Translations under genes and position numbers: made by a program
The notes under the pieces: model-generated
Database searches by the model: none
Told to the model about the DNA's origin: nothing
What the model saw: only the letters and a program-made list of their open reading frames with translations
Assembly (NCBI GenBank): GCA_000996035.1
Contig: LBYH01000002.1
Coordinates: 8,979-72,978 of the forward strand
From: Parcubacteria group bacterium GW2011_GWA2_40_143
GTDB lineage: Bacteria > Patescibacteriota > Minisyncoccia > UBA9983
DNA: 64,000 nucleotides
Direction: 5' to 3'
Shown: piece by piece, positions 134-61,813 of the stretch
How the letters are laid out: each line of letters starts with the position of its first letter
How positions within the stretch are numbered: the first letter of the stretch is position 1

Positions 134-2851
134 TCAATACTTTTTTCTTATCTCTTCCTCCACTTCTCTTCTGTCTCTGCCGTATTTAAGCGAAGAAATT
201 TCCGCTACGCCAACGCCGTAAGCCAAGTCTCCTTTCTCAAATGGTGTTGTTTTTACGCTAAACGGCTTTGATATCTGGCCATCTATAAGTATTTTGAGGT
301 AAGCGTTGTAATTATCTATATTCATAATATCATGAGCGCTAAAAGTCGGGCTAAACTGCTTCTCCAAAAATTCGGCATCTTCCGCCCCCACCCTGAAAGC
401 GGCCATTGACCCCACATTGCCAAAAACGGATTTAGAAATACTTTCCTTGAGCTGACTTATAAATTGATGGGCGATTATCAAATTAAGTTTGTACTTTCTG
501 GCTTCAGAGAGAATTGAGGAAATGGAATCAGTGGTAATGTTTTGAAATTCGTCTATATAGAGATAAAAGTCTTTGCGATCTTCTTCCGATATATCTGTGC
601 GCGAAAGAGAAGCCATGAGAATCTTGCCTACCAGAATAAGGCCGAGTAGGCTAGCGTTTAATTCGCCCAACCTGCCTTTGGAGAGATTTACCAAAAGAAT
701 CTTGCCTTCATCCATCACATCTCTTATTTTGAAAGCGGATTTTTCCTGTCCGATTATCGGACGCATAATGTCGTTTGAGAGAAAATTATCAAACTTGGAA
801 GTGATGTACGGCACCATATTGGCTAGAGACGCCTCACCGCCGGCCTTATCGGCCACGTCCCGCCAGAAAGATTTTACTATCGGATTGCTTGCTCTGGAAA
901 GCTTAAATTCTCTAAAATCTTTATCGCTAAGCACTCGGCTTACTTCAAAAAGAGTGTTGCCGGAAGCCGGATCGTCCATTACCAGCAATACCGAATTTCT
1001 GAAATATTGTTCAAACATCGGGCCGCCAGATGTTTTCATATCAAAGAGCTTGTCAAAAATCATTAAAAGTTCGTTTACAATAAAGGTTTTCTGTTCCGGA
1101 AAGCGTGTATCGTACTCAAGCATGTTGAGTCCGAGCGGCCTGTTTACGTTGCCCGGGTCAAAATAGATAACATCGTCAATCCTGTGCTGAGGAATGCGGG
1201 AAAATATATCCTGCAAATCTTGTCCATGCGGATCCATAAAGCATACACCTTTACCGGCTTCTATGTCTTGAATTATCATATTTTTGAGCAGTACGGATTT
1301 ACCGGTGCCGGTTTGACCTATTACATAGAAATGCCTTCGTCTATCTTCGTCTTTTATAAAAACCGGTTTTTCTTCGCCGCGATATATATTTTTGCCAAGC
1401 ATTAAGCCGCTATGAGGCAGATTAAGCGGAGCGGAATGCTCTTTAGCCTTGTTTTGCTTGAGCTGATGAGACACCATGCCGTCTTCCTCAAAAGGCAAAT
1501 GCAAAATACCGGCCAGCTCGGACACATTAAGCTCTATCTCTTCGTCTTTGCTTGGTATCCTGTAAGAAAAATTATGGAAAAATTTTCTTAGTTTACCCCC
1601 TTTTGGTCTTGCAAAGGTTAAAGAATTACCCATCGGCTCGGCAAATTGAGCGAAAGATATTTCCAGCTCTTCCAGCATTTTCCTCGCCCTATCCTCACTC
1701 TCTTTGGCAGACACGGCCAGTCTGAAGTTTACTGGTGAAATTTGCTTTGAAGATTTAAATTCAAGGAGTTTAATGGTTTGCTCGTCTGCCGGATTTTTTT
1801 CTTCCGGCGCGTCTTTGCGTTTTTGCTTGCCTGAACCGAGAATAAGGTCGCTTATTACTCCAATAAAACCGCCGCCATTGCCGACAGCGGCGCTGAATGA
1901 TTCTCCCTTGCGCATCTCATGGATAACCGAACTTACTTTATAGCTTAGGCCACTTTTGCTCGGCATTACCACCATCTGTAAAGCCGCTCCCTCCCCGTCT
2001 TTTTGGAATTTGGTAAAAGCGTTTAAAACAACTCTCATGGGGTCTATGCCAAAATCATTATAATTCTTCAGCGGTAAAACTGGATTCTTTTTAAACTTTG
2101 CCACTGAGCCAAGCGAAAAGCCTTCCGGTTTAAAAATATTATAATCGCCGGATTTTCTGGTAATTTTAAGATTAGGGAAAACGCCTTGCGCCTGCTTTTC
2201 AAAAATATGGCCATTTTCTTCCGCCACCGCGCAATAGAAAGACACCTCGTCTCCCATAAATGGCAGTCCTATTTCCAAAACATAATAAATATTCATGGCC
2301 GACATGCCGGCATAAAACTGCTCCATGGCCGATATGGCTTTTTTAAAGTCATCTTCTCCACTCCTCATTTCCTTAGGCGCTCCGCTCGGCATGGAAATCT
2401 CATACAAAACAAACTCAAGAGATCGTTTAACCTTCTTGTTGCCAACTTTGGCGCCGGCCAATACTCCATGCAAGCTCTCCACTAAAGAATCATGGAAATC
2501 ATCCTCCAAATGAGGATCCAATCTGGCGGCAACCGTTATCGCGTTTAGAACGCCTTTTTCTCTGGCAAGAGACACCAGTTGAGCCACATGACCAAGATGC
2601 GTTTCTTCAGAAACGCCACCCGATCCGCCGAATATTCTTTCCGACTCGGCAGCCACTTCATCGGAGTGCATTTTATATTCTTCAGCCAAAAGATAATCCG
2701 GCTCTTCTTCGGCATAACCTTTTACGACTTCTCTTACCGCTTCATGGGAAGATTCATCGCCTCCGGCTTTAGACAGCTCAAGATCTTTTACTCTTTTTCT
2801 CAAGTACTCAAGCTCGTCTTCACGAGACATTATTTTAGGCTCTTGTTCCAT
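134..2851 (-). CDS. Type IV coupling protein-like ATPase (VirD4/TraG/TraD family) with a large N-terminal cytoplasmic domain
   Basis: 905 aa. The C-terminal half carries Walker A 'HFYVIGQTGTGKS', 'FMDPHGQD' (TraD-like DPxG box), Walker B 'YLYIDEFQN', and 'IIAHQFISQLKE...FGNVGSMAAFRVG' resembling the VirD4/TraG QS..QL motif. No N-terminal TM helices are evident. Confidence 0.55.
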   Translation of the reverse strand: MEQEPKIMSREDELEYLRKRVKDLELSKAGGDESSHEAVREVVKGYAEEEPDYLLAEEYKMHSDEVAAESERIFGGSGGVSEETHLGHVAQLVSLAREKGVLNAITVAARLDPHLEDDFHDSLVESLHGVLAGAKVGNKKVKRSLEFVLYEISMPSGAPKEMRSGEDDFKKAISAMEQFYAGMSAMNIYYVLEIGLPFMGDEVSFYCAVAEENGHIFEKQAQGVFPNLKITRKSGDYNIFKPEGFSLGSVAKFKKNPVLPLKNYNDFGIDPMRVVLNAFTKFQKDGEGAALQMVVMPSKSGLSYKVSSVIHEMRKGESFSAAVGNGGGFIGVISDLILGSGKQKRKDAPEEKNPADEQTIKLLEFKSSKQISPVNFRLAVSAKESEDRARKMLEELEISFAQFAEPMGNSLTFARPKGGKLRKFFHNFSYRIPSKDEEIELNVSELAGILHLPFEEDGMVSHQLKQNKAKEHSAPLNLPHSGLMLGKNIYRGEEKPVFIKDEDRRRHFYVIGQTGTGKSVLLKNMIIQDIEAGKGVCFMDPHGQDLQDIFSRIPQHRIDDVIYFDPGNVNRPLGLNMLEYDTRFPEQKTFIVNELLMIFDKLFDMKTSGGPMFEQYFRNSVLLVMDDPASGNTLFEVSRVLSDKDFREFKLSRASNPIVKSFWRDVADKAGGEASLANMVPYITSKFDNFLSNDIMRPIIGQEKSAFKIRDVMDEGKILLVNLSKGRLGELNASLLGLILVGKILMASLSRTDISEEDRKDFYLYIDEFQNITTDSISSILSEARKYKLNLIIAHQFISQLKESISKSVFGNVGSMAAFRVGAEDAEFLEKQFSPTFSAHDIMNIDNYNAYLKILIDGQISKPFSVKTTPFEKGDLAYGVGVAEISSLKYGRDRREVEEEIRKKY

Positions 2852-2924
2852 TGCTTAAATAATAGCAAATACCTTGCCTTTTTAAAAGCAAGGTATTTTG
2901 TCTGCCAATATAACCGCTTACGGA

Positions 2925-3125
2925 TTAAGCGGAGACGAATGGCAAGATTCCGATTACTCTGGCTCTTTTTATCGCCGTGGCAAGCTTTCTCTGATGCATG
3001 GCGCAAACGCCAGTCTCCTTCTTGGGAGAAATGCGCGCGTGATGCGAGAGAAAACGCTTTAAGACTTCCGTCTTTTTGTAATCTATCGTCTTTATATTAT
3101 TTGTACAAAAATAACACTGTTTCAT
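2925..3125 (-). CDS. rpsR: 30S ribosomal protein S18
   Basis: 66 aa; 'CYFC...IDYK..LKRFLS...ISPKKETGVCAMHQRKLATAIKRARVIGILPF' is the S18 signature. Sits directly downstream of ssb. Confidence 0.9.
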   Translation of the reverse strand: MKQCYFCTNNIKTIDYKKTEVLKRFLSHHARISPKKETGVCAMHQRKLATAIKRARVIGILPFVSA

Positions 3126-3127
3126 AA

Positions 3128-3577
3128 TTAAAATGGTATATCGTCAGGATTTATTTCTTCTTCCGGATATTCTATGGTTTCAAGTTCCTCAGCCTTCTGC
3201 GGTGTTCCGCCGGAAGCGGCGCCGCCGCCTTGAACGGAATCGCCACCCTGCTTCCTTGGACCAAACTGCACGCGTTCAGCCACAATCTCGGTACGGCTTT
3301 TCTTGGAGCCGTCTTGAGCGTTCCAGTTTCTGGTTTGTATCCTGCCTTCCACCAATACGGAATTGCCCTTTTTAAGATATTGGACTACTGAGTCGGCCTG
3401 CTTGCCAAACACCACCACGTTATGGAATTGGACTTCCTCTTTTTTCTGGCCTTGCTGGTCCCGCCAAACCCTATTGGTGGCTACGCTAAAAGATGCCACC
3501 GAAGCTCCGGACGGCAGAGATCTTGATTCCGGATCTCTGGTAAGATTGCCTATTATAAATGCTTTGTTTAAGTTCAT
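3128..3577 (-). CDS. ssb: Single-stranded DNA-binding protein
   Basis: 149 aa; OB fold 'FIIGNLTRDPE...VASFSVATN', Gly-rich linker, acidic C-terminal tail ending 'DDIPF'. Confidence 0.9.
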   Translation of the reverse strand: MNLNKAFIIGNLTRDPESRSLPSGASVASFSVATNRVWRDQQGQKKEEVQFHNVVVFGKQADSVVQYLKKGNSVLVEGRIQTRNWNAQDGSKKSRTEIVAERVQFGPRKQGGDSVQGGGAASGGTPQKAEELETIEYPEEEINPDDIPF

Positions 3578-4078: not shown

Positions 4079-5311
4079 TTATTTTAAAATTAGCGACCAA
4101 AGGATGCCGGTGGCCTTATCCACAAATATCAGATATTCACCGTTTTCGCTCAAAGACAGGTTTATGGCGTCAAACCCCAAATCTTTATACAAAAGCGCGG
4201 TGGATCCATCCGTAAAATCCTTCTTCCAAAGCGAATCATTGAAAGACACTTCTCCGCTGTACCACTCATCCGGATAATCGGCTTTGGGCAGAGATTTTGG
4301 CGCGGCGCAATAAATGGTTTTTGAGCTTGCGCCCCAAACGCATTTCTCCGGCAAGGTGTTAAAATCAAATTCAGGAGAAGAGTTGCTCGCGGTATCAAGT
4401 ATTCTCGTATTAAAATTACCGCTGCGGCTGTCACTCGCGCTGTATATAATCTTTGAAGCGTCGGGAGAAACTCTGGCCGTAAGGCCTTTTATTCCGCCCA
4501 AAATTCTTTCAAATTTTTCCGTTCTCTGGTTTAGAAAATAGAGATACCCGTCAGCCATGGCCGCCGGCTTGGTGATAAGAGTGATAATATCTCTGCTTGG
4601 CCATTCGGCGTTAAATTCGCCAAAGTTTAGACTAAAAATACTATTTTTATTTTCATTTTTAAAATTAGCCACGATTCCCTGATGTTCACCATCGGCAAGG
4701 ATAAGATAAAACACTTTATCCTCCACCGGCGACACGGCAGCCGCCTTGATGCCGGACGGCAAGAAAACTCCGCCAAGCTCTTTCGGCTCCCCAGATAAGC
4801 CGCTCAGATCGGCCAAAAAGTTTTTTACACTCCGTTCCGCCGCGGCGCCGGCTTCCTCAAAATATTTTATAAGAACTTTATTTGCTTTACTTGTCCAAAA
4901 CGTTTCAAAGCTTTTAAGTATAGTAGTATTGGTAAGGCGTTTTCTATTTTTGCCGGAATAGCCTACTTCGTAAACATTACCGGTGCTTCTTTCCATATAT
5001 CTTAAGGTGGTGCTGGAAACAGGCGCCGCCCCGCTTACTAAATCCTCCGTAAGCTGTATGAGCTGGCCTTTTTTAACAGGCGTATCTTGTCCGTCTTGAT
5101 CCACAAATCTGCCGGAACCGGTGCCGCCGCCGGGCTTAACGCTTGTTCTATCTTCTCCGCCGGAAGGAAATGGAGTGATACCGCCTTCGCTGCCACCAAC
5201 ATCAATCGGTGTCTTAAAAGTGTTTTGCCTTAGGAAAACAAAGAAGCCAAACCCCGCGAGAGCGAAGATTATTGCCGTTATTAAGATTATAAAAATTTCT
5301 TTTTTAGACAT
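4079..5311 (-). CDS. Secreted/membrane-anchored hypothetical protein, beta-propeller-like
   Basis: 410 aa; N-terminal TM/signal 'IFIILITAIIFALAGFGFFVFL'; the C-terminal half has a TolB/WD40-like repeat character. Part of the T4SS-like cluster. Confidence 0.4.
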   Translation of the reverse strand: MSKKEIFIILITAIIFALAGFGFFVFLRQNTFKTPIDVGGSEGGITPFPSGGEDRTSVKPGGGTGSGRFVDQDGQDTPVKKGQLIQLTEDLVSGAAPVSSTTLRYMERSTGNVYEVGYSGKNRKRLTNTTILKSFETFWTSKANKVLIKYFEEAGAAAERSVKNFLADLSGLSGEPKELGGVFLPSGIKAAAVSPVEDKVFYLILADGEHQGIVANFKNENKNSIFSLNFGEFNAEWPSRDIITLITKPAAMADGYLYFLNQRTEKFERILGGIKGLTARVSPDASKIIYSASDSRSGNFNTRILDTASNSSPEFDFNTLPEKCVWGASSKTIYCAAPKSLPKADYPDEWYSGEVSFNDSLWKKDFTDGSTALLYKDLGFDAINLSLSENGEYLIFVDKATGILWSLILK

Positions 5312-5339
5312 GGTTTAATCAAAATTAACTTGCCAAAAA

Positions 5340-5966
5340 TTAACTTCCATCCCAACCTTCAAGCTCTCCGGCCGGACTTTCATCATATGTATTATAACTT
5401 CCATCCTCATTTAGAATCTTTCCAGCTGAACCTTCATCGCGATCAATAATAACTTCATTTTTACCATCACCGCTATCGCTTCCACTAGTACTGCTACTAT
5501 CACCAGTACCGCTGCTGCTGGTGCTACTACTGTCGCTGCTATCACTACTACTCGTAACTTCATAATTTTCAAGAGTGTCAATGAATTTAAAGCTTACCAA
5601 TTGAGGGTTTATGGTATAAAGAAGAAGAAACGACGCAAAAGCCAAAAGCAACCCCCAAAGCGCGTTATTGATACGTTCTTTTGCTTTGGTCATTTGACTC
5701 TCGTTGCCACCGCTTGCCATATAGATAATACCGCCAACGGTTATCATCAGCACTGCCAAAAAACCTGCCATAGCCAAAGCAAATTTAAAAATCCAGCCCA
5801 AATATTCTGACAATGTTACATCGTCGCCATCACCGGCGGAAGGGAGTGACTCAAGCAGTGTATATTTCGGTTGAGAAGGCCCAACAAAATCATCATCCGC
5901 GGCCATGGCAAAAAACGGCATTAAACATAAACTTATTAAAATTGTGATAAATATTTTTTTAAACAT
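5340..5966 (-). CDS. Candidate VirB2/TrbC-like pilin with a Ser/Asp-rich C-terminal tail
   Basis: 208 aa; signal peptide 'MFKKIFITILISLCLMPFFAMAAD', then two hydrophobic helices separated by a short polar loop ('WIFKFALAMAGFLAVLMITVGGIIY...NNALWGLLLAFASFLLLY'), then a poly-Ser/Asp tail. Topology matches conjugative pilins. Confidence 0.35.
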   Translation of the reverse strand: MFKKIFITILISLCLMPFFAMAADDDFVGPSQPKYTLLESLPSAGDGDDVTLSEYLGWIFKFALAMAGFLAVLMITVGGIIYMASGGNESQMTKAKERINNALWGLLLAFASFLLLYTINPQLVSFKFIDTLENYEVTSSSDSSDSSSTSSSGTGDSSSTSGSDSGDGKNEVIIDRDEGSAGKILNEDGSYNTYDESPAGELEGWDGS

Positions 5967-9225: not shown

Positions 9226-9867
9226 TTATCTATTCGCCACTCCTTTGCCACTTTCCCCCGGATTATACAGCTCGTAGAAAAGCTCTATAAGCTCTTCCGT
9301 ATTAAGTGGAGCCACTCTTATACCGGCGCGCGCCAGACCTTGTTGCACCACATCCGATCTCTGCTGAAGCTGGATTTTATACTGCTCAAACTTCTCGCCC
9401 ATGGAACCGCTTTTACCGTCACCGGCAATGCCTCCAAACAATTTGCCAAAGCTTCCCTTTTTGACTTCTATGGATACGTTGGTGTATGGCACGGTAATAT
9501 AGAAGGTCTTAGACATCACATTGGTAACTTGCACAAAATTTTTTACGAATTCAGCGTACTCTTTGGTCTGAATCCGCAAAAGCTCATTATCATGACTTTT
9601 TTCCGCTTCGCTTAAAATAGCCAAGTAGGGACCTATATCCAATTTTCTGGATTGAATAAAAAATTGCACCGGAAAATCAAGGGAGTTTAAAAAGTTTTGA
9701 TACTGAAGCACGATGGCGCTCTGTTCTTCTTCAGATTTAAGGGCGAAGTTCAAAGTGGAAGCCATAAGAATCATTCTTAAAGAATTATCTTTAAGAATGA
9801 TTACGCCGTCTCTTATTTCCTTTATCGGCACGAACTCTTGCGTTGATTTTGATGATACCGGTGACAT
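9226..9867 (-). CDS. VirB4 N-terminal domain fragment (Gram-positive TcpF/PrgJ/Orf16-type N-terminus)
   Basis: 213 aa; 'FVPIKEIRDGVIILKDNSLRMILMASTLNFALKSEEEQSAIVLQYQNFLNSLDFPVQFFIQSRKLDI' matches the conserved N-terminal region of Firmicutes-type VirB4. Ends in TAA at 9226-9228, in frame with the next ORF. Confidence 0.65.
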   Translation of the reverse strand: MSPVSSKSTQEFVPIKEIRDGVIILKDNSLRMILMASTLNFALKSEEEQSAIVLQYQNFLNSLDFPVQFFIQSRKLDIGPYLAILSEAEKSHDNELLRIQTKEYAEFVKNFVQVTNVMSKTFYITVPYTNVSIEVKKGSFGKLFGGIAGDGKSGSMGEKFEQYKIQLQQRSDVVQQGLARAGIRVAPLNTEELIELFYELYNPGESGKGVANR

Positions 9868-16767: not shown

Positions 16768-17535
16768 TTATTTGCTTATCAAACATTTCCAATTCTCAAT
16801 ACTCAGATCTTCCGCTCTCGCTTTTTCGCTTACGCCGCAACCGGTCAGAAAATCGGCATCAACTCCAAGATTACCTTTCAACATTTTTCTTTTGCTGGCA
16901 AAACCTTTTTTAACTATTTCAAAAAACTTTTCTTCAGAAATGTCTCTAAAAAATTCCTTGGAAATGTTTGAGATTTTTAAAACCGCCGAATCCACCTTGG
17001 GCTTGGGAGAAAAATTGCCGGCCGGCACCCTTCTCGCTATCTCCGGCCGGCCATAAACCTTAACGCTGATTGAAAGAAGACTCTCTTTTGTTCCCACAAT
17101 CCTCTCCGCCACTTCTTTTTGCACCATTAAAACTATCATTGAAGGCTGTTCGCTTTCCGGTTTATCGCTTAAAAAATTTCTTAAAAACTGAGAAGTGATG
17201 TAATACGGAATGTTAGCCACTACCTTATATCCCCCACCCACCATCAAGGCGTCGCCTTGATGGTGTAAAATATCGTCAAAAAGGAGTTCCAGTTTCCCGT
17301 TTTTTATTTCTGACGCAAATTTTTCTTTTAAAAACTCCGCAAATCTCTCATCTTTCTCCATCGCTATCACTTTTTTAGCCTTATTTAGCAAAGCTTCAGT
17401 AAGAATGCCCTTACCCGGTCCCACTTCCAAAATCACGTCGTTTCCATTTATTTCAGCGGCATTTACAATATCCTCCACCACCTTGCGTGAAGTTAAAAAA
17501 TTCTGCCCCAAACTTTTTTTAGCTTTTATCATCAT
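16768..17535 (-). CDS. rsmA: 16S rRNA (adenine1518/1519-N6)-dimethyltransferase RsmA/KsgA (start assumed at internal Met)
   Basis: 'KSLGQNFL' hallmark and SAM motif 'ILEVGPGKGILTEAL'. The track ORF extends to 17592 through the REP palindrome; the internal Met 'MMIKAKKSLGQNFL' is the more plausible start. Confidence 0.85.
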   Translation of the reverse strand: MMIKAKKSLGQNFLTSRKVVEDIVNAAEINGNDVILEVGPGKGILTEALLNKAKKVIAMEKDERFAEFLKEKFASEIKNGKLELLFDDILHHQGDALMVGGGYKVVANIPYYITSQFLRNFLSDKPESEQPSMIVLMVQKEVAERIVGTKESLLSISVKVYGRPEIARRVPAGNFSPKPKVDSAVLKISNISKEFFRDISEEKFFEIVKKGFASKRKMLKGNLGVDADFLTGCGVSEKARAEDLSIENWKCLISK

Positions 17536-17553: not shown

Positions 17554-17580
17554 TTGCACCAAGGTTAAACCTTGGTGCAA
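17554..17580. repeat. REP-like perfect palindrome TTGCACCAAGGTT-A-AACCTTGGTGCAA (REP copy 1; partial direct copy at 17543-17553)
   Basis: 27-bp self-complementary sequence overlapping the RAYT 3' end; the same sequence recurs at 18235-18290 and 19325-19350. Confidence 0.8.
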
Positions 17581-18230
17581 TAACTTAGCCAAAAATCAAG
17601 ATATTTTCTAAGCTCCAAAGTATCATCAAAATATTCAGGCAGAACGTTTTTATCTATAATCAATCCTTCTTTTCTTTCTAACCCTAAATAATCAATAAAA
17701 CTGGAGTATTTATATTGTTTTAAAAAATCATCGACTTTATCTTTATTAGAAATACCATTTTCTTTCCAGTGAGGATCGACCATTTTTACCGGATTTAGAT
17801 GAATATAAGCTAAAAGATACTTGAGATGATTGTCGTCATTAGCATGAATAGACTTGAAGCTACTTTCAAAAAGCGAGCCTGTTCTCTCATATTTTTTATT
17901 AAAAAACATAGTATAACCAGTCATCATTTTTTGCATAAACTTACTTACTCCACCCTCCCTAATTTCTTGAACTAGTACATGAAAATGATTGGGCATAAGA
18001 CAATAAGCCGATATCTTCACGATATCATCTTCTTTTTTCAAATTTAAAACACCCTCAAGAGTACTATCGCGCAAGTTGCTTATATGGACAGTGTCTTTAT
18101 TGTTGCAGATATACAAAAGAGAAATAAATCTTTCGTAGTCATCCTTTTTCAAAAAAATTTTTCTCTTATCCGTACCTCTTCCGTATAAGTGATAATTTTC
18201 TCCTATTGAAAAATCAATATTTCTAGCCAT
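17565..18230 (-). CDS. IS200/IS605-like Y1 HUH transposase, REP-associated tyrosine transposase (RAYT)-like
   Basis: 221 aa; HUH motif 'YCLMPNHFHVLVQE'; C-terminal 'AYIHLNPVKMVDP' resembling the RAYT catalytic-Tyr region; flanked on both sides by REP-like palindromes. Confidence 0.7.
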   Translation of the reverse strand: MARNIDFSIGENYHLYGRGTDKRKIFLKKDDYERFISLLYICNNKDTVHISNLRDSTLEGVLNLKKEDDIVKISAYCLMPNHFHVLVQEIREGGVSKFMQKMMTGYTMFFNKKYERTGSLFESSFKSIHANDDNHLKYLLAYIHLNPVKMVDPHWKENGISNKDKVDDFLKQYKYSSFIDYLGLERKEGLIIDKNVLPEYFDDTLELRKYLDFWLSYCTKV

Positions 18231-18234
18231 TTTT

Positions 18235-18290
18235 TTGCACCAAGGTTAAACCTTGATATAATTGGTTAAACCTTGCATTTTGGTGCTGAT
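18235..18290. repeat. REP-like palindrome, degenerate copy with an internal 20-bp partial duplication
   Basis: TTGCACCAAGGTTAAACCTT[gatataattggttaaacctt]GCATTTTGGTGC, immediately upstream of the RAYT start codon. Confidence 0.6.
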
Positions 18291-19264
18291 AAGCCTTTGA
18301 AAAACTCAACGACCTCAACAAAATCAGCTTCGTTGTACTTACAAGAGTTATCTAGGAAGCATCTGTCATCTTTTGATATTGGAAATTTATTACTTGATAT
18401 TAAATTAGATATTTTAATATCAGCCCCATTCCAATATCTTTCGCAAGAAAGATCTAGATTTTCCTTATCTACACCTAAAGCTGAGAGCGCTTCATCTGTG
18501 TTTCTAAAGCAAAAGATATTTCCATTATTTATAGTTTCTTTTTGAGCCGGCTCAAAACAAATTTTGCCGAAAGCATATTCCTCAAAACCCCTTGGTAAAG
18601 AGTTTTTGTTCATAAAATATAAATATGATCCAGTGGCTTTTGTACTATTTTCATTTATAAACTTAAAACTAGACAGGATATTGTTATATACCGCCTGCTG
18701 CTCTTTTTCTTTTGGATTATTAACCCCAGGATAAACAGAATAAAATATTTTAAATATTTTTACCCCTCTATTTATATAGATCTCCTGACTAACACTGTCT
18801 CCACCGCGCTGTGTTATATAAAAAGCATCATGATCGTTAAACGATTTTTCTTCTCCATGAGATACATCTCTTAATGTAAATGGTAAATCTTTTTCTCCGC
18901 TTTTATCAAATTCTTTTTTATAAAATTCCGAGTACCAATCTTTCGGACTTAATTTATTCAAATTATCATAAATGTATACACTTAAACGGTACGGGATACC
19001 TTCGTAGGGAATGCCATCTTCTTGATCCGTTATGCGTACATGATTGTTATCCCCAACAACAAGCTTTAAAAAATCTGGATATCTAATTTCAAATAAAAGT
19101 CTGTTGTCTTTATATGTTTGCCATCCTATATTTTCAATAACATGAATGTCACGCCCAGCTGATGTGGTGCTTTTTTCACTATTAATTTTGTCTCTCTCCT
19201 CTAAAAAATAAATAAAAAGAACACCAACAATAATCGCCACTAAAAATAAAATTATTTTTTTCAT
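18266..19264 (-). CDS. Secreted hypothetical protein with a Cys-rich C-terminus, located between REP copies (possible REPtron cargo)
   Basis: Start assumed at 'MKKIILFLVAIIVGVLFIYFL' (signal anchor); the track ORF extends to 19294. No recognisable domain. Confidence 0.45.
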   Translation of the reverse strand: MKKIILFLVAIIVGVLFIYFLEERDKINSEKSTTSAGRDIHVIENIGWQTYKDNRLLFEIRYPDFLKLVVGDNNHVRITDQEDGIPYEGIPYRLSVYIYDNLNKLSPKDWYSEFYKKEFDKSGEKDLPFTLRDVSHGEEKSFNDHDAFYITQRGGDSVSQEIYINRGVKIFKIFYSVYPGVNNPKEKEQQAVYNNILSSFKFINENSTKATGSYLYFMNKNSLPRGFEEYAFGKICFEPAQKETINNGNIFCFRNTDEALSALGVDKENLDLSCERYWNGADIKISNLISSNKFPISKDDRCFLDNSCKYNEADFVEVVEFFKGLSAPKCKV

Positions 19265-19324
19265 ATTTTTACATTTTTTACAATAAAAAATCACCTAATC
19301 GTATTTTATCATATTTTTGATTTC

Positions 19325-19350
19325 TGCACCAAGGTTAAACCTTGGTGCAA
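19325..19350. repeat. REP-like palindrome TGCACCAAGGTT-A-AACCTTGGTGCA (REP copy 3)
   Basis: Perfect 25-26-bp palindrome identical to REP copy 1, in the 7-nt-wide gap before pcrA. Confidence 0.8.
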
Positions 19351-30759: not shown

Positions 30760-30830
30760 TGCGGGATGGGAGAATCGAACTCCCGACCTCGGTTTGGAAA
30801 ACCGATATTATACCATTTAACTAATCCCGC
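30760..30830 (-). tRNA. tRNA-Gly (anticodon UCC), no encoded CCA
   Basis: Cloverleaf read by hand: acceptor GCGGGAT/ATCCCGC, anticodon stem TCGGT/ACCGA, loop TTTCCAA, T-arm GGGAG-TTCGATT-CTCCC. Confidence 0.8.
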
Positions 30831-31237: not shown

Positions 31238-31308
31238 TCGGGCTGCTGGGAATTGAACCCAGTCTACCTGCTCCCAAAGCAGGCGTACTACCGGTATACG
31301 ACAGCCCG
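31238..31308 (-). tRNA. tRNA-Pro (anticodon UGG), no encoded CCA
   Basis: Acceptor CGGGCTG/CAGCCCG (C1-G72, typical of bacterial tRNA-Pro), anticodon stem CCTGC/GCAGG, loop TTTGGGA, T-arm CTGGG-TTCAATT-CCCAG. Confidence 0.75.
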
Positions 31309-31765: not shown

Positions 31766-32121
31766 AGTAATTTTAAACTATTTCTTAAGTAAAAAGTTGC
31801 ACGTGCAACTTTTTATGCTCTTATTTTACCTTTTATCCGATTGTTTCACTGCGTGTGAAACAATCGGATAAAAGGTTGTCATATGAAGAATATCTTTAAT
31901 TAAAAATTTAAATAAAGGCTCTAAATAAGGTTGTTTTTTCTTTTTTTATATTATAAAAGACGAACTATTAGATATTTTATGGTCACTTATTGGACACTCT
32001 ACAAACATCTAATGTACATAACCTGTGGATAGTGTGGATAACTTCTTTATTTTAAGCCTTTTCTAAAAGACGTTATTTCTAACAGACATACATATTTAAA
32101 GGACAAACTCGCTTCATTCGT

Positions 32122-32195
32122 GTGTCCTCGGAGGGACTCGAACCCCCAACAACAGGTTCGAAGCCTGTCATGATATCCATTTCACCACGAGGACA
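32122..32195 (-). tRNA. tRNA-Arg (anticodon UCG), no encoded CCA
   Basis: Acceptor GTCCTCG/CGAGGAC, anticodon stem ACAGG/CCTGT, loop CTTCGAA, T-arm GGGGG-TTCGAGT-CCCTC. End positions are +/-1 nt. Confidence 0.65.
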
Positions 32196-34173: not shown

Positions 34174-34881
34174 TCACACCCACTCAATCGGCTTTTGGCC
34201 GGTTTTGAGAAGGTATTCGTTGGTTTTGGAGAAATGCTTGCAGCCGAAGAAGCCGGAATTGGCGGAGAAGGGAGAAGGGTGAGGGGCTTTAAGGATAAGG
34301 TGTTTGCTTCCGTCTATCAAACTTTCTTTTTCTTGAGCGAATTTACCCCAAAGAAGGAAAACGATATTTTCTCTTTTGTCGGAAAGTGCTTTAATGGCGG
34401 CATTGGTCAATTTTTCCCAGCCGAGATTGCGATGAGAAGCGGGAGAATTGGCGCGAACGGTAAGGATTACATTAAGAAGCAAAACACCCTGCGTTGCCCA
34501 GCCTTCCAGATTGCCATTTTGCCTTATCCAAGGACTGTCCTTGGATTTTTTTATACCCAAGTCGCTTTCTATTTCTTTAAATATATTTATAAGTGATGGT
34601 GGAGGGTTAACACCACTTGGCACTGAAAAAGACAATCCATGCGCTTGCCCTTGACCATGATATGGGTCCTGTCCAAGAATAACGACCTTAACTTTATCAA
34701 AAGGCGTGAGATTGAAAACGTTGAAAATCTGTTGGGGCGGGGGATAAACAATAATGCCGGACTCCAATTCCTCCGCCAGTTTCTTCTTCAACTCTTTCAT
34801 ATATTCCGCCCCAAATTCATCGGACAAGACCTTTTTCCAGCTTTCTTCAATTTGAGGGTTAAGTGAATTATCTGCTTGCAT
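34174..34881 (-). CDS. ung: Uracil-DNA glycosylase (family 1)
   Basis: 'KVVILGQDPYHGQGQAHGLSFSV', 'GVLLLNVILTV', 'HPSPFSA'. Confidence 0.9.
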   Translation of the reverse strand: MQADNSLNPQIEESWKKVLSDEFGAEYMKELKKKLAEELESGIIVYPPPQQIFNVFNLTPFDKVKVVILGQDPYHGQGQAHGLSFSVPSGVNPPPSLINIFKEIESDLGIKKSKDSPWIRQNGNLEGWATQGVLLLNVILTVRANSPASHRNLGWEKLTNAAIKALSDKRENIVFLLWGKFAQEKESLIDGSKHLILKAPHPSPFSANSGFFGCKHFSKTNEYLLKTGQKPIEWV

Positions 34882-39099: not shown

Positions 39100-39285
39100 A
39101 GTTTTTAAGAGATATAGTGTTCGATTCCAAAAAGTCCTTTGTTTTAAGCATTTTTATGATAAATTGAACAAAATAACATAAAGTTAAATAAATAAAATAC
39201 AAAATCTACATTATTATCTTACTAGATTTTAACAATTTTGTCCACTTTTTGTGTGTGCCTTTCATTTCTGTGTTAAAATAATAAA

Positions 39286-40932
39286 ATGTCATGGCTTTCA
39301 AAAGTTTTCAAGAAAAAAGAAGTACCATTGTCAAGGTTGAACCTTGACAATGGAGTCAATATTGAGCAGTCCAAGCCACTGGTGCTGGTTATTATAGACG
39401 GCTATGGCGTGCCTCAAGACGGATCGGAATCACCATGGCGAAACGCCGCCAAGCCTAATTTTGAAGAAATAGAGAAGCATTATCCATTTACCACACTGCA
39501 AGCCTCGGGCATAGCGGTAGGCTTGCCATGGGGAGAGGCCGGCAATAGCGAAGTGGGGCATCTCACTATTGGTGCCGGCAAGGTTATTTATAATTATCTG
39601 CCAAAAATATCAACGACTATCAAAGACGGTTCTTTCTATGAAAATAAGGCTTTCATGAAAGCGGTTTCTCAAACAAAGGCCGGCGACGGCGCTTTGCATT
39701 TTCTCGGTCTTTTTTCCAGCGGCACTGTTCATGCTTATTTTGAACACCTCTACGCGCTTCTTGAGCTGGCCAAGCGAAATGGTGTAGATAATAAAACATA
39801 TCTTCATCTTTTCACTGACGGCAAAGACGCCTATGAACGCGAAGGAGCAGACTTCTACGACAAGCTGGAAGATGATCTTAAAAAAGATTTTCCAAATATT
39901 AAAATCGCCTCCATAATGGGCCGCAGCTTTGCCATGAATAGAAATGAAGAATGGGGGAAAACAGAAAAAGCCTATAATCTTCTTATTAAAGGCGAAGGAG
40001 AAAATTTTTCTTCGGTAAAAAGTTATATTGAAAACAATTATGCCGAAGGAATCACCGACAGCGCCATAGCTCCAGCCGCCGTTATAGACAGAGAAGGAAG
40101 AATTAAAAGCGGCGATAGCGCGATCTTCTTTAACTTCAGAGAAGACAGCGCTCGCCAACTCACGGAAGCTTTTATTAAGCCGGATTTTGATAAGTTTAAT
40201 AGAGAAAAGCTGAATGATCTCACCTTTGTTACTATGACGGAATATGATAAAAACCTTCCAACACTTGCCGCTTTTAAATCCGCCGAAGTGGCTAACCCGC
40301 TGGCAAAACTGGTATCTGAAAGCGGTTTATCCCAACTTCACATCGCTGAAACCGAGAAATACGCGCATATAACCTTTTTCTTAAACGGTGGCAGGGAAAC
40401 GCCTTTTAAGGGCGAAGACAGGCTTCTTGTGCCATCACCTAATATACACCCGTACAGTCAAGCGCCAGCCATGTCTTCTTCTGAAATAGCAAAAAGGATA
40501 ATAAGCAATCTTGGTAATTATGATTTTATTGCCGCAAACTTCGCCAACGCGGATATGGTGGGACACACCGGCGACTTTGATGCCACCACTAAAGCCATAG
40601 AAACCATAGATTCTCGGATAGGTGAGCTTAAAAAAGCGGTTTTGGACATTGGCGGAACACTTATTGTAACGGCCGATCATGGCAACGCGGAAGAAAAATT
40701 ATACAAATCCACGGGTAACAAAAAATCTGAGCACTCTTTAAATCCGGTGCCTTTTTACGTAATTGGCAATGATTTTAAAAAAGAAACAGCTAAAACTCCG
40801 GAAGAAATATCGGCAAATTATAGAAAAACAAAAGGCGCTCTCATTGATGTGGCTCCAACAGTATTAAGCTTGCTTAAAATACAAACTCCCGCCGAGATGA
40901 CTGGCAGGAGTTTGTTGGAGAAATTGTTTTAA
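39286..40932 (+). CDS. gpmI: 2,3-bisphosphoglycerate-independent phosphoglycerate mutase (the N-terminal ~25 aa contain a REP-like palindrome; the true start may be at a downstream GTG)
   Basis: 'LVLVIIDGYGV', 'GNSEVGHLTIGAG', 'ADMVGHTGDFDATTKAIETID', 'TADHGNAE'. Confidence 0.9.
   Translation: MSWLSKVFKKKEVPLSRLNLDNGVNIEQSKPLVLVIIDGYGVPQDGSESPWRNAAKPNFEEIEKHYPFTTLQASGIAVGLPWGEAGNSEVGHLTIGAGKVIYNYLPKISTTIKDGSFYENKAFMKAVSQTKAGDGALHFLGLFSSGTVHAYFEHLYALLELAKRNGVDNKTYLHLFTDGKDAYEREGADFYDKLEDDLKKDFPNIKIASIMGRSFAMNRNEEWGKTEKAYNLLIKGEGENFSSVKSYIENNYAEGITDSAIAPAAVIDREGRIKSGDSAIFFNFREDSARQLTEAFIKPDFDKFNREKLNDLTFVTMTEYDKNLPTLAAFKSAEVANPLAKLVSESGLSQLHIAETEKYAHITFFLNGGRETPFKGEDRLLVPSPNIHPYSQAPAMSSSEIAKRIISNLGNYDFIAANFANADMVGHTGDFDATTKAIETIDSRIGELKKAVLDIGGTLIVTADHGNAEEKLYKSTGNKKSEHSLNPVPFYVIGNDFKKETAKTPEEISANYRKTKGALIDVAPTVLSLLKIQTPAEMTGRSLLEKLF
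39325..39353. repeat. REP-like 29-bp perfect palindrome CCATTGTCAAGGTT-G-AACCTTGACAATGG inside the gpmI 5' region
   Basis: 14-bp arms around a single centre base; the same sequence occurs in tsaE at 57084-57110. The core CAAGGTT-N-AACCTTG is shared with the RAYT-flanking REPs. Confidence 0.75.
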
Positions 40933-44469: not shown

Positions 44470-45852
44470 ATGCAAACCAACGAAGAAACAAACTACGATC
44501 AACTTTGGAAAGATGTTCTTTCTGAGATAGAGATGACTACATCAAAAACAAGTTTTTCCATGTGGTTTAAGGATACCGGCATTTCAAATTTCAATGATGG
44601 AGTTGTATATATCGGCGTGCCTAATAATTTTGTCAAAGACTGGCTTCTTAATAAATATCATAAATTTATAATTGGCGCTCTTAGAAACAATAATCCGGCT
44701 ATAAGAGGCGTGGATTATATTATTGTTTCTAAAGATCATCAGGACATAATAACTAAAAACACGGCTCCTCATAAGTTTACTTATACCCCAAGTAGCGGCG
44801 AACAGCTTGGTTTTAATGAATTTAACACAGACAAAGAAGCTAATTTAAACCCTAGATACACTTTTGATTCTTATGTGGTGGCGCCTTTTAATGAGATTGC
44901 TCATGCCGCGGCCATAAGTGTGGCAAAAAACCCTGGCAATTTATATAATCCGCTCTTTATTTATGGCGGTGTTGGTCTTGGCAAAACCCATTTACTCCAA
45001 TCCATAGGCAATGAAATGAAGAAAAACAACCCCAGCGCCAAGGTTTATTATCTTACTTCCGAGAAATTCGCCAATGAATATGTTTCTTCCATTCAAAACA
45101 AAACAACCAATTCTTTTAAGGAAAAATATAGAAAATACAATCTTTTAATAGTTGATGATATTCAATTTTTTTCCGATAAATTAAAAATTCAGGAAGAGTT
45201 TTTCCATGTTTTTAACTCTCTTTATGAGTCCGGCAATCAAATTGTGTTTTCTTCCGATAAGTCGCCTCAACATATAGTCGGCCTTGAAGAAAGGTTGAGA
45301 TCAAGATTTGAAGGCGGAATGATGATAGATGTTTCACCTCCTGAATATGAGGAAAGATTGGCTATATTGAAGGTTAAAGTAAGTCAAAAAAACTTTACTT
45401 TAGATGAAGATGTAATTAATTATATCGCTGAAGTTATAAAAGAAAACATAAGAGAGCTTGAGGGAGCGCTTAATTCCATAATAGGCCAATCAAAAATAAG
45501 AGGTAGAATTCTTACCTTAAGTGAAGTTGAAGAAATTTTAAGAAAAAAAATCAAACCTATAAAAGTGGTTGATGCGGAACATGTTATAAAAACAATACTT
45601 AATTACTACAAAATAAACGAAAAAAACCTTACAGAAAGAACGAGAAGAAAGGAAATTGTAAAACCTCGTCAAATAGCCATGTATATTTTAAGAAACGATT
45701 TAAACACTTCTTATCCGCATATAGGTAGAAGATTCGGACAAAAAGATCACACTACCGTAATTCACGCGTACAAAAAAATAAGTGAAGACATAAGAAGAGA
45801 CAAGAAACTTGAGCAAGAGATAAATAACATTAGAGATATTATTTATAAATAA
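44470..45852 (+). CDS. dnaA: Chromosomal replication initiator DnaA
   Basis: 460 aa; 'NPLFIYGGVGLGKTHLLQSIGN', box VII, C-terminal HTH 'IGRRFGQKDHTTVIHAYKKI'. Confidence 0.95.
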   Translation: MQTNEETNYDQLWKDVLSEIEMTTSKTSFSMWFKDTGISNFNDGVVYIGVPNNFVKDWLLNKYHKFIIGALRNNNPAIRGVDYIIVSKDHQDIITKNTAPHKFTYTPSSGEQLGFNEFNTDKEANLNPRYTFDSYVVAPFNEIAHAAAISVAKNPGNLYNPLFIYGGVGLGKTHLLQSIGNEMKKNNPSAKVYYLTSEKFANEYVSSIQNKTTNSFKEKYRKYNLLIVDDIQFFSDKLKIQEEFFHVFNSLYESGNQIVFSSDKSPQHIVGLEERLRSRFEGGMMIDVSPPEYEERLAILKVKVSQKNFTLDEDVINYIAEVIKENIRELEGALNSIIGQSKIRGRILTLSEVEEILRKKIKPIKVVDAEHVIKTILNYYKINEKNLTERTRRKEIVKPRQIAMYILRNDLNTSYPHIGRRFGQKDHTTVIHAYKKISEDIRRDKKLEQEINNIRDIIYK

Positions 45853-46080
45853 AGTGGATAAATATGTGGATAATTTGTTGATAAAAAACATGATTCTAAT
45901 GGACACTAAAAATAATATTTTTTATCCACTTTTAATATTAGTTTTTTACACAAGTTACGCACAATAGAAAAGTTAAAAAAATATTATTTAAAGCCATTTT
46001 TTTAACTTTTCCACTTATCCACATAGTATAATAATAATGAAAAATTTAAATATATTAAAAAATAAAACTATTATAATTAA
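45853..46080. promoter_or_regulatory. oriC downstream region: four DnaA boxes (45853, 45866, 45922, 46015) plus an AT-rich putative unwinding element
   Basis: AGTGGATAA, TGTGGATAA, TTATCCACT, TTATCCACA; >85% AT stretch at 46025-46080 just before dnaN. Confidence 0.7.
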
Positions 46081-56914: not shown

Positions 56915-57013
56915 ACTAGCATTCCTAGCATTTTGACTCTACGGTTGCAAGATTGACTCTCTCCTGATTGTGTTTGGTTTGTTTGATTTTTAAAAAATGC
57001 TAGAATTTGCCTA

Positions 57014-57496
57014 ATGAAAAAAAGGATAATCACAAAGAATCTTGAGGAGTTTATCAGCCTCGTTCAAATTATCGCCAAGAACTCATTGTCAAGGTTGAAC
57101 CTTGACAATGGAGGTGGCGCGACCGTGCTGGCGCTTTATGGCGAATTGGGCGCGGGTAAAACCACTTTCGCGCGCGCGTTTGCCGAAACATTGGGAGTAA
57201 AAGAAAAAATTAAAAGTCCGACTTTTATAATTTTCAGAAAATCAAAAATAGAAAATAAGGAATGGAGCGAGAAAGTTTTTGAAAATTTTTATCATTTTGA
57301 TGTTTACAGAATTCATAATGAAAAAGAAATTTTAAATCTCGGCTGGGAAGAAATAATTTCTAATCCACGCAATATTGTTTTGGTGGAGTGGGCGGATAAA
57401 ATAGAAAGTATCTTGCCTAAAAACCATATTGAGGTAGTCCTCAAACATAAAGAAGAGGGAAAAAGAGAAGTGGAGGTGATGATGGCAAAGGTGTGA
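57014..57496 (+). CDS. tsaE: tRNA threonylcarbamoyladenosine biosynthesis protein TsaE, carrying an in-frame 9-codon palindrome insertion
   Basis: 'VLALYGELGAGKTTFARAFAETLGV', 'SPTFIIF', 'HFDVYR', 'VLVEWADK'. The palindrome-encoded SLSRLNLDN precedes the P-loop. Confidence 0.8.
   Translation: MKKRIITKNLEEFISLVQIIAKNSLSRLNLDNGGGATVLALYGELGAGKTTFARAFAETLGVKEKIKSPTFIIFRKSKIENKEWSEKVFENFYHFDVYRIHNEKEILNLGWEEIISNPRNIVLVEWADKIESILPKNHIEVVLKHKEEGKREVEVMMAKV
57084..57110. repeat. REP-like 27-bp perfect palindrome CATTGTCAAGGTT-G-AACCTTGACAATG inside tsaE
   Basis: Identical to the gpmI copy (39325-39353); in the coding frame it reads LSRLNLDNG. Confidence 0.75.
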
Positions 57497-60925: not shown

Positions 60926-61813
60926 ATGTTTTATCTCCTCCACGGCCAAGACACATATAGAAGCAGAAATAAGCTCAATGAGCTTATTTCGCATTTTAAA
61001 ACCAAAGTTTCCGGCTTGGGTTTCTTTGATATGGACAAAGAGAGTTTTAGCGAAGCCGACTTTGAGGAGTTGCTTAAAACCAAAAATCTTTTTGAGAGAA
61101 AATACGTGACGGTGTGTCGCCGGCTTTTAGAAGATAAAATTTCGTCCGGATTTATAATTAAAAATTTGGAACTTTGCGCCGGCTCGGAAAATATCTTTCT
61201 GTTTTGGGAAGGGGATCTTGAGCAAGAACTGGTGGAAGCGGCGGAAAAGCGCGCTGTCAAAACGCAAAAGTTTGACTTACTAGACGGAACGCGTTTGGCT
61301 AAGTGGTACGCGGATAAAAAATTACCGGTCAAAGTTGCCGAAGCCATTAAGAAAGAGTGTGGAGCCGATTTGAGCCGCGCGGAAAAGGAGATAGAAAAAT
61401 ACGAACTTGGAGACCCCTGTTTTGGAGACTTAGTCTCCAAAACAGGGGGAGTGCCGGCTTACAATCCTTTTGCCATTTGCGACGCTTTCGCGGAGAAAAA
61501 TAAAATGAAGGCGTGGATTATTTATCATCAAGCGTTAAGACAGGGTGTTTCGGCTGAAGAAGTGTTTTTTAAAATCGCATGGCAGATAAAAAATTTACTT
61601 TTGGTAAAGGGGCTACAAAAGTTTGGCTCGCCAAATATGGAAAAAAGTTCAGGCTTGCATCCATTTGTATTTAAAAAAACTTTGCGGGCGGCGCAAAATT
61701 TTACCGAAGGAGAATTGGAAAAATATTCTTATGAGATGCTGAAAATTTATCACGAAGAAAGAAGAGGGAGAGCGGAGTTGTCGGTAGAATTTGAAAAAAT
61801 GCTCATTAGTTGA
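60926..61813 (+). CDS. holA: DNA polymerase III delta subunit
   Basis: 295 aa; 'FYLLHGQDTYRSRNKLNELI' is HolA-like; clamp-loader fold length. Confidence 0.55.
   Translation: MFYLLHGQDTYRSRNKLNELISHFKTKVSGLGFFDMDKESFSEADFEELLKTKNLFERKYVTVCRRLLEDKISSGFIIKNLELCAGSENIFLFWEGDLEQELVEAAEKRAVKTQKFDLLDGTRLAKWYADKKLPVKVAEAIKKECGADLSRAEKEIEKYELGDPCFGDLVSKTGGVPAYNPFAICDAFAEKNKMKAWIIYHQALRQGVSAEEVFFKIAWQIKNLLLVKGLQKFGSPNMEKSSGLHPFVFKKTLRAAQNFTEGELEKYSYEMLKIYHEERRGRAELSVEFEKMLIS

Follow-up and report, generated by a model that had tools for sequence, protein, structure and literature searches.

The stretch of DNA analysed here (the window) comprises 64,000 nucleotides of Parcubacteria group bacterium GW2011_GWA2_40_143 (contig LBYH01000002.1, positions 8,979 to 72,978), and the feature in question is a short palindrome at the start of gpmI, the gene for the cofactor-independent phosphoglycerate mutase (iPGM). 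The gene is located on the plus strand at 39286-40932 and its product carries the Pfam domains iPGM_N (PF06415) and Metalloenzyme (PF01676), preceded by a 25-residue N-terminal extension that holds the palindrome. The latter (39325-39353; no strand is assigned to this or to any other palindrome of the family) has the sequence CCATTGTCAAGGTT-G-AACCTTGACAATGG, begins at nucleotide 40 of the open reading frame (ORF) and is read in the N-terminal tail as PLSRLNLDNG. Its arms were found to be perfect at 14 nt each around a 1-nt centre (14+1+14, 29 bp in total), and 100 dinucleotide-preserving shuffles gave zero palindromes matching it, which bears out the original prediction of a 29-bp palindrome 40 nt into gpmI. 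This type of palindrome, resembling repetitive extragenic palindromes (REPs), is designated A-type in what follows.

The gpmI palindrome and its place in the gene

The second A-type copy of the window lies at 57083-57111 within tsaE (57014-57496), in the loop before the P-loop strand, where it is read as SLSRLNLDNG. It differs from the gpmI copy in the first base alone, leaving perfect arms of 13 nt (13+1+13). The two copies had been reported to share one frame, and both do read LSRLNLDNG, but the weight of this agreement is smaller than was claimed, since the G at the centre puts a TGA in the other two frames and LSRLNLDN is thus the sole open frame, a deduction from the sequence that agrees with the frame data given below. 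The shared frame is forced by stop codons and is therefore not independent evidence.

The gpmI copy is predicted to fold into a hairpin with a 13-bp stem and a triloop (-18.8 kcal/mol as RNA and -13.0 as DNA), which would occupy +40 to +68 of the predicted gpmI mRNA; the 120-nt 5' region gave a fold z-score of -4.2, so that the folding check proposed with the original prediction did return a stable hairpin. Each arm includes the hexamer TTGACA; a promoter reading of it was rejected, as no -10 box is present at the correct spacing. A terminator was rejected as well, the stem being without a following T-run, and T/A runs at some loci lengthen the stem. An Rfam scan of the entire window returned three tRNAs only and no family at the palindrome. 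An assembly artefact was discarded on the basis of identical protein sequences in the NCBI, JGI, ENA and Logan assemblies.

The N-terminus of the window GpmI had been described as odd, and this was confirmed with 120 iPGM homologues, most of which begin MKKYKPVVLVILDG (MKKYKPVVL...) with the catalytic Asp at residue 11-13, compared with residue 38 in the window protein; the first 29 residues of the latter are unlike the iPGM N-termini. Two accounts had been offered, a coding insertion at the extreme N-terminus, or an element in the 5' untranslated region (UTR) followed by a GTG start. An extended -10 box (TGtTAAAAT, plus strand, 39271-39279), read from the sequence, is kept in the two closest relatives (loci L045 and L046) and in a more distant syntenic orthologue (L041, 56% identity). 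It ends 6 nt ahead of the ATG at 39286, so the predicted transcription start is the A of this ATG and the predicted mRNA is leaderless. The same promoter-to-start layout was found at approximately 20 long ORFs of the window, including tsaE, polA, holA and uvrD, with TGnTAnnnT ending 4-9 nt before the start (for example at 39271-39288, 56998-57016, 44470, 57507, 60926 and 21288). The gpmI and tsaE starts show no evident Shine-Dalgarno sequence, and leaderless mRNAs appear, from these sequence features, to be common in this organism. A leaderless mRNA requires a 5'-terminal AUG, which, together with the promoter boxes abutting the starts, points to ATG 39286 as the start of gpmI.

Other features argue in the same direction. 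The tail MSWLSK[VI]FKK and the promoter box are kept in the two relatives of 93-94% identity, three members of one 90% cluster start with MSWLSK[VI]FKK like the window GpmI, and in the 56% identical orthologue a similar tail (MKFNLFKKKKEE...) follows that box; the central part of the tail varies freely. The codons for KP in the conserved (Y)KPVVL motif lie upstream of the GTG proposed earlier, and no ATG, GTG or TTG occurs between the palindrome and these codons. The N-terminal peptide MSWLSKVFKKKEVPLSR is the part of GpmI predicted if translation starts at ATG 39286. Public records are split between a protein of 548 aa (ATG 39286) and one of 534 aa (TTG 39328, codon 15); the 534-aa records (e.g., KKR47914.1 and the JGI calls) begin at a TTG within the palindrome, a choice that is probably wrong and that would still leave the palindrome translated from its fourth base on. 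This inconsistency of the gpmI records is caused by the palindrome. The promoter at the ATG, the kept tail, the KP upstream of the GTG and the lack of an intervening start support a coding palindrome at the extreme N-terminus of gpmI and speak against the 5'-UTR element with a downstream start. An ordinary extragenic REP in the 5' UTR would mean that translation begins at a non-canonical codon or with the GTG of ...PLVLVIIDG, and that the long ORF is misannotated. It would accord with the homologues that usually begin 8-9 residues ahead of the LVI(I/L)DG strand, with the GGAG that follows the palindrome and precedes an in-frame ATT by 5 nt, with the disagreement between the public starts, and with the remark of Di Nocera et al. 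(2013, PMC3733652) that misannotation accounts for many 'intragenic' REPs at N-termini. Against the conserved tail, ATG and promoter box, the position of KP, the window-wide promoter layout and an alternative TTG that itself falls within the palindrome, such a placement is considered quite improbable.

The comparison with gpmI of relatives that had been suggested was made with L045 (PFER01000035.1, 93.1% identity over 9.9 kb) and L046 (JAUYMG010000048.1, 94.5% over 5.2 kb). It showed that the tail and the promoter are kept and that the A-type palindrome is absent from gpmI at 93-94% identity. A sliding comparison over the 10-kb syntenic block revealed three divergent spots, namely an N run in L045, a 13-nt tandem duplication and the palindrome region; the last is the only real hyperdivergent patch in the block, which makes the gpmI event a discrete and probably recent one. 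In the codon alignment, a 30-nt block of the window (CCATTGTCAAGGTTGAACCTTGACAATGGA) stands opposite 21 nt (GCTATCAAGGACGCAACGGTA) in both relatives, a net gain of 9 nt. The proposed insertion into gpmI thus holds as a coding event but not as a clean insertion of 29 nt, 21 nt having been replaced by 30 nt relative to the closest relatives through either an insertion plus a deletion or a replacement. In both relatives, TATCAAGG already matches the left arm and stands opposite TGTCAAGG of the window, and the more distant L041 is empty at this site, which is thus known in three states. A gain in the window lineage, with loss in both relatives as the alternative, is indicated by few flanking sites. 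As for the tandem duplication, ATAAATAAAGTGG is duplicated in L045 and not in the window (45827-45863), in an AT-rich region near dnaA/dnaN that is possibly the replication origin.

A dispersed palindrome family and its copies inside genes

The core CAAGG-N5-CCTTG occurs seven times in the window, compared with 0.04 copies expected. The conserved core of the element is CAAGG(TT)-N-(AA)CCTTG, around which two to four outer base pairs covary. The seven copies comprise the two A-type palindromes of gpmI and tsaE, three of a second type (B-type) clustered at 17554-19349, and one each in ksgA and ung. The ksgA/rsmA copy (CACCATCAAGGCG-N-CGCCTTGATGGTG, 17239-17265) is in frame and read LHHQGDALMVG, and the ung copy (ATCCAAGGAC-N-GTCCTTGGAT, 34526-34546), also in frame, matches a 7-residue loop insertion with respect to solved UNG structures.

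The exact 23-mer TTGTCAAGGTTNAACCTTGACAA was found at 40 loci of a species-representative genome set, mostly in metagenome-assembled genomes (MAGs) of Patescibacteria, with hosts from at least seven named candidate phyla (Lloyd-, Nomura-, Zambryski-, Vogel-, Giovannoni-, Gottesman- and Saccharibacteria); seven of the 40 loci belong to Bathymodiolus or SUP05 symbionts. Single MAGs were found to hold 5-7 exact copies of the 23-mer, the window holding two A-type copies in 64 kb. A metagenome scan with a 21-mer gave at least 117 loci, with 144 copies among the matches listed, and the family is present overall in more than 150 public loci, mostly of Patescibacteria plus SUP05 symbionts. These copy counts rely on pattern searches with regular expressions, a repeat finder having missed the palindromes on locus L063. 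A variant with ATG (AATGTCAAGG...CCTTGACATT) was also recorded. Viral contigs scanned for the 23-mer gave no matches and no sign of a phage vector.

Among 174 distinct copies, the first outer pair was complementary in 80% (TA 66, AT 49, GC 13 and CG 12), followed by 63%, 49% and 36% for the further pairs, the baseline of approximately 25% being reached from pair 5. This profile sets the element at about 27-29 bp, as in gpmI, and the pairing is, judged from the aligned copies, maintained through compensatory change. The oriented flanks of 166 copies contained no GTAG or CGTC tag, no target motif and no asymmetric conserved flank, with only a weak and symmetric shortage of G to the left and of C to the right; no direct duplication was seen at the flanks of the element. 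The dispersed and possibly active family that had been proposed from two copies is supported by these data and is extended, with the genes described in the next section, to a REP-type repeat linked with transposase genes.

Of the 144 metagenomic copies among the matches listed, 51 lie within open frames of at least 150 codons, 44 of them read as SR[LF]NLD, seven as QG[SL]TL and none in the third frame. The hosts confirmed with Pfam include LigA, GatB (at two different sites), an HhH-GPD (MutY-like) glycosylase, RecR, a MurD-like ligase, a radical-SAM protein, an FAD oxidase and a XerC-like integrase, with KsgA, UvrD, PolA, a UvrC-like protein and a Dus-like protein recognised from the translations only. 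The in-frame hosts of the window, gpmI, tsaE, ksgA and ung, keep their conserved domains, as do LigA, GatB, the MutY-like glycosylase, RecR and MurD at other loci. The host genes are rich in replication and repair functions, in which intragenic REPs are likewise frequent (Di Nocera et al., PMC3733652).

A single site can hold different palindromes, a pattern at odds with simple insertion. In one loop of the TsaE orthologues, L042 carries ATGTCAAGG-TCTCG-CCTTGACAT, L043 the decayed CAATGTCAAGGCGAAACTTTGACATTG and L048 the perfect CAATGTCAAGGTT-G-AACCTTGACATTG, and other orthologues have no palindrome at that loop. In LigA of L063 (5059-5079) and L088 (1189-1209), the palindrome stands directly ahead of the adenylation-site motif (MSRFNLDI-[EA]-YVCELKIDG), a site unlike that in L005, L018 and L025, so LigA was struck at two or more positions. 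One 400-codon frame of L121 (785-831) holds two palindromes 5 nt apart, one for each permitted frame (VSRLNLDKH, then CQGLTLTAV).

RAYT-like transposases beside the palindromes

The B-type palindromes of the window surround a gene on the minus strand (17565-18230) for a 221-aa HUH/Y1 tyrosine transposase with the motifs LMPNHFHVLV and YIHLNP (Pfam Y1_Tnp, E=3.9e-10). Its sole NCBIfam match was the REP-associated tyrosine transposase (RAYT; NF047646), with 45.4 bits and the cut-off of 80 not reached. A search of the PDB with the sequence alone gave no match, and a profile of 45 homologues gave ISDra2 TnpA only (E=0.11), so that the placement needed a fold search. The AlphaFold model built with these 45 homologues (pLDDT 88.6) matched best, among PDB folds, the E. 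coli RAYT in complex with a REP hairpin (4ER8), followed by the IS608, ISDra2 and IS200 transposases. The motifs MPNHFH[LIV][LI] and Y[IV]HLNP were present in 117-120 of 120 homologues. With an HUH motif and a single catalytic tyrosine on what is modelled as a Y1 fold, the protein can be described as RAYT-like. Among 1.84 billion representatives, the protein family counts 351 clusters at E<=1e-30, rising to 5145 at E<=1e-10, and its named records carry only 'transposase' or 'hypothetical protein'.

Palindromes and transposase genes were found to be closely associated. In the window, a B-type palindrome (TTGCACCAAGGTT-N-AACCTTGGTGCAA, 17554-17580) lies at the RAYT 3' end, its centre giving the RAYT stop codon and an additional copy of the right arm following it, and a second one, truncated in its outer arm (18235-18255), lies 5 nt upstream of the start codon. 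Homologues of 38-55% identity (tblastn) directly adjoin A-type palindromes in L001/L014, L006, L019, L029 and L036, with palindromes on both sides of the gene in L001/L014, L006 and L019. A RAYT homologue was at most 150 nt away for 30 of the 144 metagenomic copies among the matches listed. The palindrome also enters the protein itself: 44 of 120 homologues have palindrome-encoded C-terminal tails (VKVQP*, VKVEP* or TKV*, in the third or related frames) and 67 have, in the loop that precedes HUH, a QG.TL-like motif corresponding to the second frame. In L006, from a Bathymodiolus heckerae SUP05 symbiont, the homologue at 5115-5674 is flanked by A-type palindromes and holds a third copy inside the gene; its two tblastn segments are in different frames, and the inner palindrome thus appears to disrupt the transposase gene.

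Further paralogues were found on one other contig. Locus L134 (Ga0076179_143) is 99.3-99.97% identical to the window, and L063 (Ga0076179_131), from the same IMG dataset, appears by that dataset name to belong to the genome of the window. It carries a second RAYT paralogue of 54% identity (2659-3309), flanked by CAATGTCAAGGTT-N-AACCTTGACATTG, each arm of which departs from the gpmI copy at one position, as well as a third Y1 gene of 32% identity to the window RAYT. The second paralogue is the best candidate for the enzyme that would mobilise the A-type palindrome. No identical RAYT copies were seen in the window (one gene) and L063 (two divergent paralogues) together.

The third B-type palindrome (19325-19349) is intergenic and lies upstream of a 342-aa ORF on the minus strand (18266-19294) that adjoins the RAYT gene and is placed between two B-type palindromes. 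This ORF has a hydrophobic N-terminus and gave no Pfam or NCBIfam match. It ends on a stop codon that forms the centre of a palindrome remnant (..KCKV*, CAAGGTTTAACC at 18264-18275), and the RAYT locus may carry it as a passenger.

Palindromes of other sequence are also present in the window. In holA (60926-61813), a perfect palindrome at 61414-61448 with 17-nt arms and a 1-nt centre (CCCCTGTTTTGGAGACT-T-AGTCTCCAAAACAGGGG) is in frame and encodes DPCFGDLVSKTGG. Its sequence is not related to that of the CAAGG family; among the fetched loci the palindrome recurs only in L134, of the same genome, and it may represent another family of intragenic hairpins. A further one is found in the N-terminal portion of the holA coding sequence (60966-60990, 12-nt arms and a 1-nt centre, GAAATAAGCTCA-A-TGAGCTTATTTC, RNKLNELIS). 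Two large perfect palindromes, at 31790-31815 (13-nt arms, no spacer) and 31828-31876 (22-nt arms, 5-nt loop), lie between tRNA genes (30760-30830, 31238-31308 and 32123-32194), and an AT-rich perfect hairpin at 9769-9802 (15-nt arms, 4-nt loop) lies just downstream of a minus-strand ORF start (9867).

Origin of the repeats and likeness to known systems

The gpmI palindrome is considered likely to be a recent, translated copy of a REP-like non-autonomous hairpin repeat with cognate RAYT-like transposases. On the basis of homology to the E. coli TnpA-REP and to the IS608 and ISDra2 TnpA, the palindrome is proposed to fold back on itself in single-stranded DNA, the resulting hairpin then being bound by the RAYT-like enzyme, cut at the foot and joined to DNA elsewhere, often where a related or decayed copy already stands. 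In genomes with very little intergenic space, many copies would land in genes, and purifying selection would leave those that are in frame and free of stops in tolerant loops and tails; the frame statistics (44/7/0) support such a coding filter. The surviving copies would yield the recurrent peptide LSR[LF]NLD[NKI], or QG[SL]TLT in the second permitted frame. In gpmI, the 30-nt block would have replaced 21 nt of a dispensable tail after the split from the 93-94% identical relatives and, as part of a leaderless mRNA, would be translated. Since sites are re-used and net length changes are small, the enzyme may prefer targets resembling half-sites or old copies, or insertion may have been followed by a compensating deletion.

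Several observations weigh against this account. The palindrome is without the GTAG or CGTC end tag that marks the described REPs and serves as guide or cleavage context, and full symmetry leaves the element with no obvious polarity of strand or end. The window RAYT is flanked by B-type and not by A-type palindromes, the enzyme for the latter being inferred, and the role of this RAYT family in cleaving or moving the palindrome is likewise presumed by homology. The LigA peptide TLSRLNLDNA and the native SFLRLNEERK of the B. stearothermophilus enzyme give a gap-free alignment, and several 'insertions' show little or no net length change, that in gpmI being +9 nt relative to the relatives; such small changes are not predicted by cut-and-paste or copy-and-paste movement and suggest replacement, conversion, or insertion followed by deletion. 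Finally, the direction of the gpmI event, gain or loss, depends on few flanking sites.

Some of these observations would fit a spread of the palindromes without a transposase, by template switching at quasi-palindromes or by ectopic gene conversion, the Y1 gene being a passenger or a preferred target. The outer arms differ in sequence and remain complementary, the events resemble replacements with a small net length change, the closest relatives already have TATCAAGG at the TGTCAAGG of the window, and diverged palindromes occupy the same TsaE site in orthologues. However, template switching cannot write one 21-29-nt sequence at unrelated loci in different phyla, the passenger model leaves the systematic presence of palindromes at both RAYT ends and of RAYT stops inside them without explanation, and the nearest structural match of the enzyme is a hairpin-binding REP transposase. 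This origin is regarded as unlikely, if somewhat less so than the 5'-UTR placement discussed above. Marginally below that placement stands a host-functional hairpin or protein-binding site regulating gpmI, as an mRNA structure that slows early elongation of a leaderless message or as the operator of a dimeric regulator. The stable stem and triloop at +40 to +68 with the z-score of -4.2, the TTGACA in each arm, and the perfect 14+1+14 symmetry typical of dimer binding sites could be taken as its signs, but the same sequence is found in loops of unrelated proteins, at any gene position, between genes, and in and around RAYT genes. Beyond hairpin stability no indication of a regulatory role for the gpmI hairpin was found; close relatives lack it, no Rfam family matches, and TTGACA has no -10 box at the right spacing.

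The recurrence of LSRLNLDNG across many proteins, and its overlay on the native conserved F.RLN motif in LigA, could also be ascribed to a selected functional peptide module, convergent or spread by domain shuffling. Here the evidence is least accommodating: the conservation is at the DNA level, the 23-mer being identical while flanking codons diverge, approximately half of the copies are non-coding, the second frame (QGSTLT) is also used, and the host proteins are functionally unrelated with the sites in loops or tails, making such a module very improbable indeed.

A broader form of the REP-RAYT reading, held here as a tentative and rather doubtful one, would see in these data an undescribed Patescibacteria system, its hairpin kept across phyla as far as SUP05, that time and again writes a fixed 9-10-residue cassette over the same loops or tails in essential genes, those of DNA replication and repair above all, old copies being refreshed. 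If true, minimal genomes would contain an editor of protein loops that is driven by a transposase and re-uses its sites, and the system may be domesticated, with its hairpins or its RAYT serving a host role in replication or repair.

REPs and RAYTs have been characterised mainly in Proteobacteria, where the repeats are seen as extragenic, species-specific and GTAG-tagged. The present family breaks from these in its ultra-small, gene-dense genomes, in a symmetric untagged hairpin kept across phyla, in a large and poorly named set of transposases (the 351 clusters at E<=1e-30) and in having about a third of its copies inside genes. It accounts for odd 9-10-residue loop insertions (LSRLNLDN, QGSTLT) in proteins of the candidate phyla radiation (CPR), flags a problem of start-codon annotation, some gpmI records beginning within the palindrome, and offers presence/absence markers for strain tracking. 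It is also a tractable case for the target choice of hairpin transposases and for the load of selfish DNA tolerated in essential genes of a minimal genome. Literature searches for REP or RAYT in Patescibacteria or CPR returned nothing relevant.

Among the known systems, the IS200/IS605 elements (IS608, ISDra2) share with the present one the transposase superfamily and fold and the hairpins at both ends of the gene. Nevertheless, both ends here carry the same perfect palindrome instead of distinct imperfect left and right ends, no tnpB partner is present (the neighbouring ORF being without a family match), and solo palindromes far outnumber the gene; on these identical ends, the absence of a tnpB-like neighbour and the predominance of solo copies, an IS200/IS605 element was rejected. 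A miniature inverted-repeat transposable element (70-300 bp, with terminal inverted repeats and target-site duplication) was rejected on account of the 25-29 bp length and the lack of flank duplication. The intragenic REPs and the Rickettsia palindromic elements (RPEs; PMC3733652) are alike in forming in-frame repeats in genes that are still functional, in residing in loops or termini and in having hosts of replication and repair, here LigA, a MutY-like protein, RecR, Ung, UvrD, PolA and a XerC-like integrase. The present repeat, however, belongs to another sequence family, has no GTAG or CGTC tag and is much shorter than RPE-1, and whereas CGTC-type repeats and RPEs are without a dedicated transposase (PMC3733652), the palindrome here is directly linked to a RAYT gene.

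The REPIN-RAYT systems of Pseudomonas (Bertels & Rainey; PMC5581495) are comparable in that several divergent RAYT paralogues appear to share one genome, the two paralogues of the window and L063 being flanked by different palindrome types. The units here are single 25-29-bp palindromes rather than doublets of two inverted REPs, in Patescibacteria hosts with very small genomes and frequently in coding sequence. The closest likeness is to the E. coli REP, with its bacterial interspersed mosaic elements, and TnpA-REP (4ER8), where a dispersed short palindrome also has copies flanking a single HUH/Y1 gene, the transposase gene is likewise, as far as the window and L063 show, not seen in multiple identical copies, and the enzyme is both the best structural match and the only NCBIfam match of the window transposase. 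The window protein differs in falling under the curated cut-off and in approximately 70 extra C-terminal residues. REPs are marked by a GTAG or CGTC tetranucleotide at one end (PMC3733652, PMC6006769) and have been described as species-specific (PMC6006769), whereas the Patescibacteria family has no GTAG tag, has perfectly symmetric rather than imperfect arms, a hairpin sequence common to several phyla and about a third of its copies intragenic. In short, the hallmarks of a hairpin-forming short palindrome and of copies flanking a RAYT gene were found, and the end tag, the extragenic location (the gpmI and tsaE copies being translated) and the restriction to a species or genus were not. Intragenic in-frame REPs and RPEs were already known, and functionally this is probably a REP-RAYT system.

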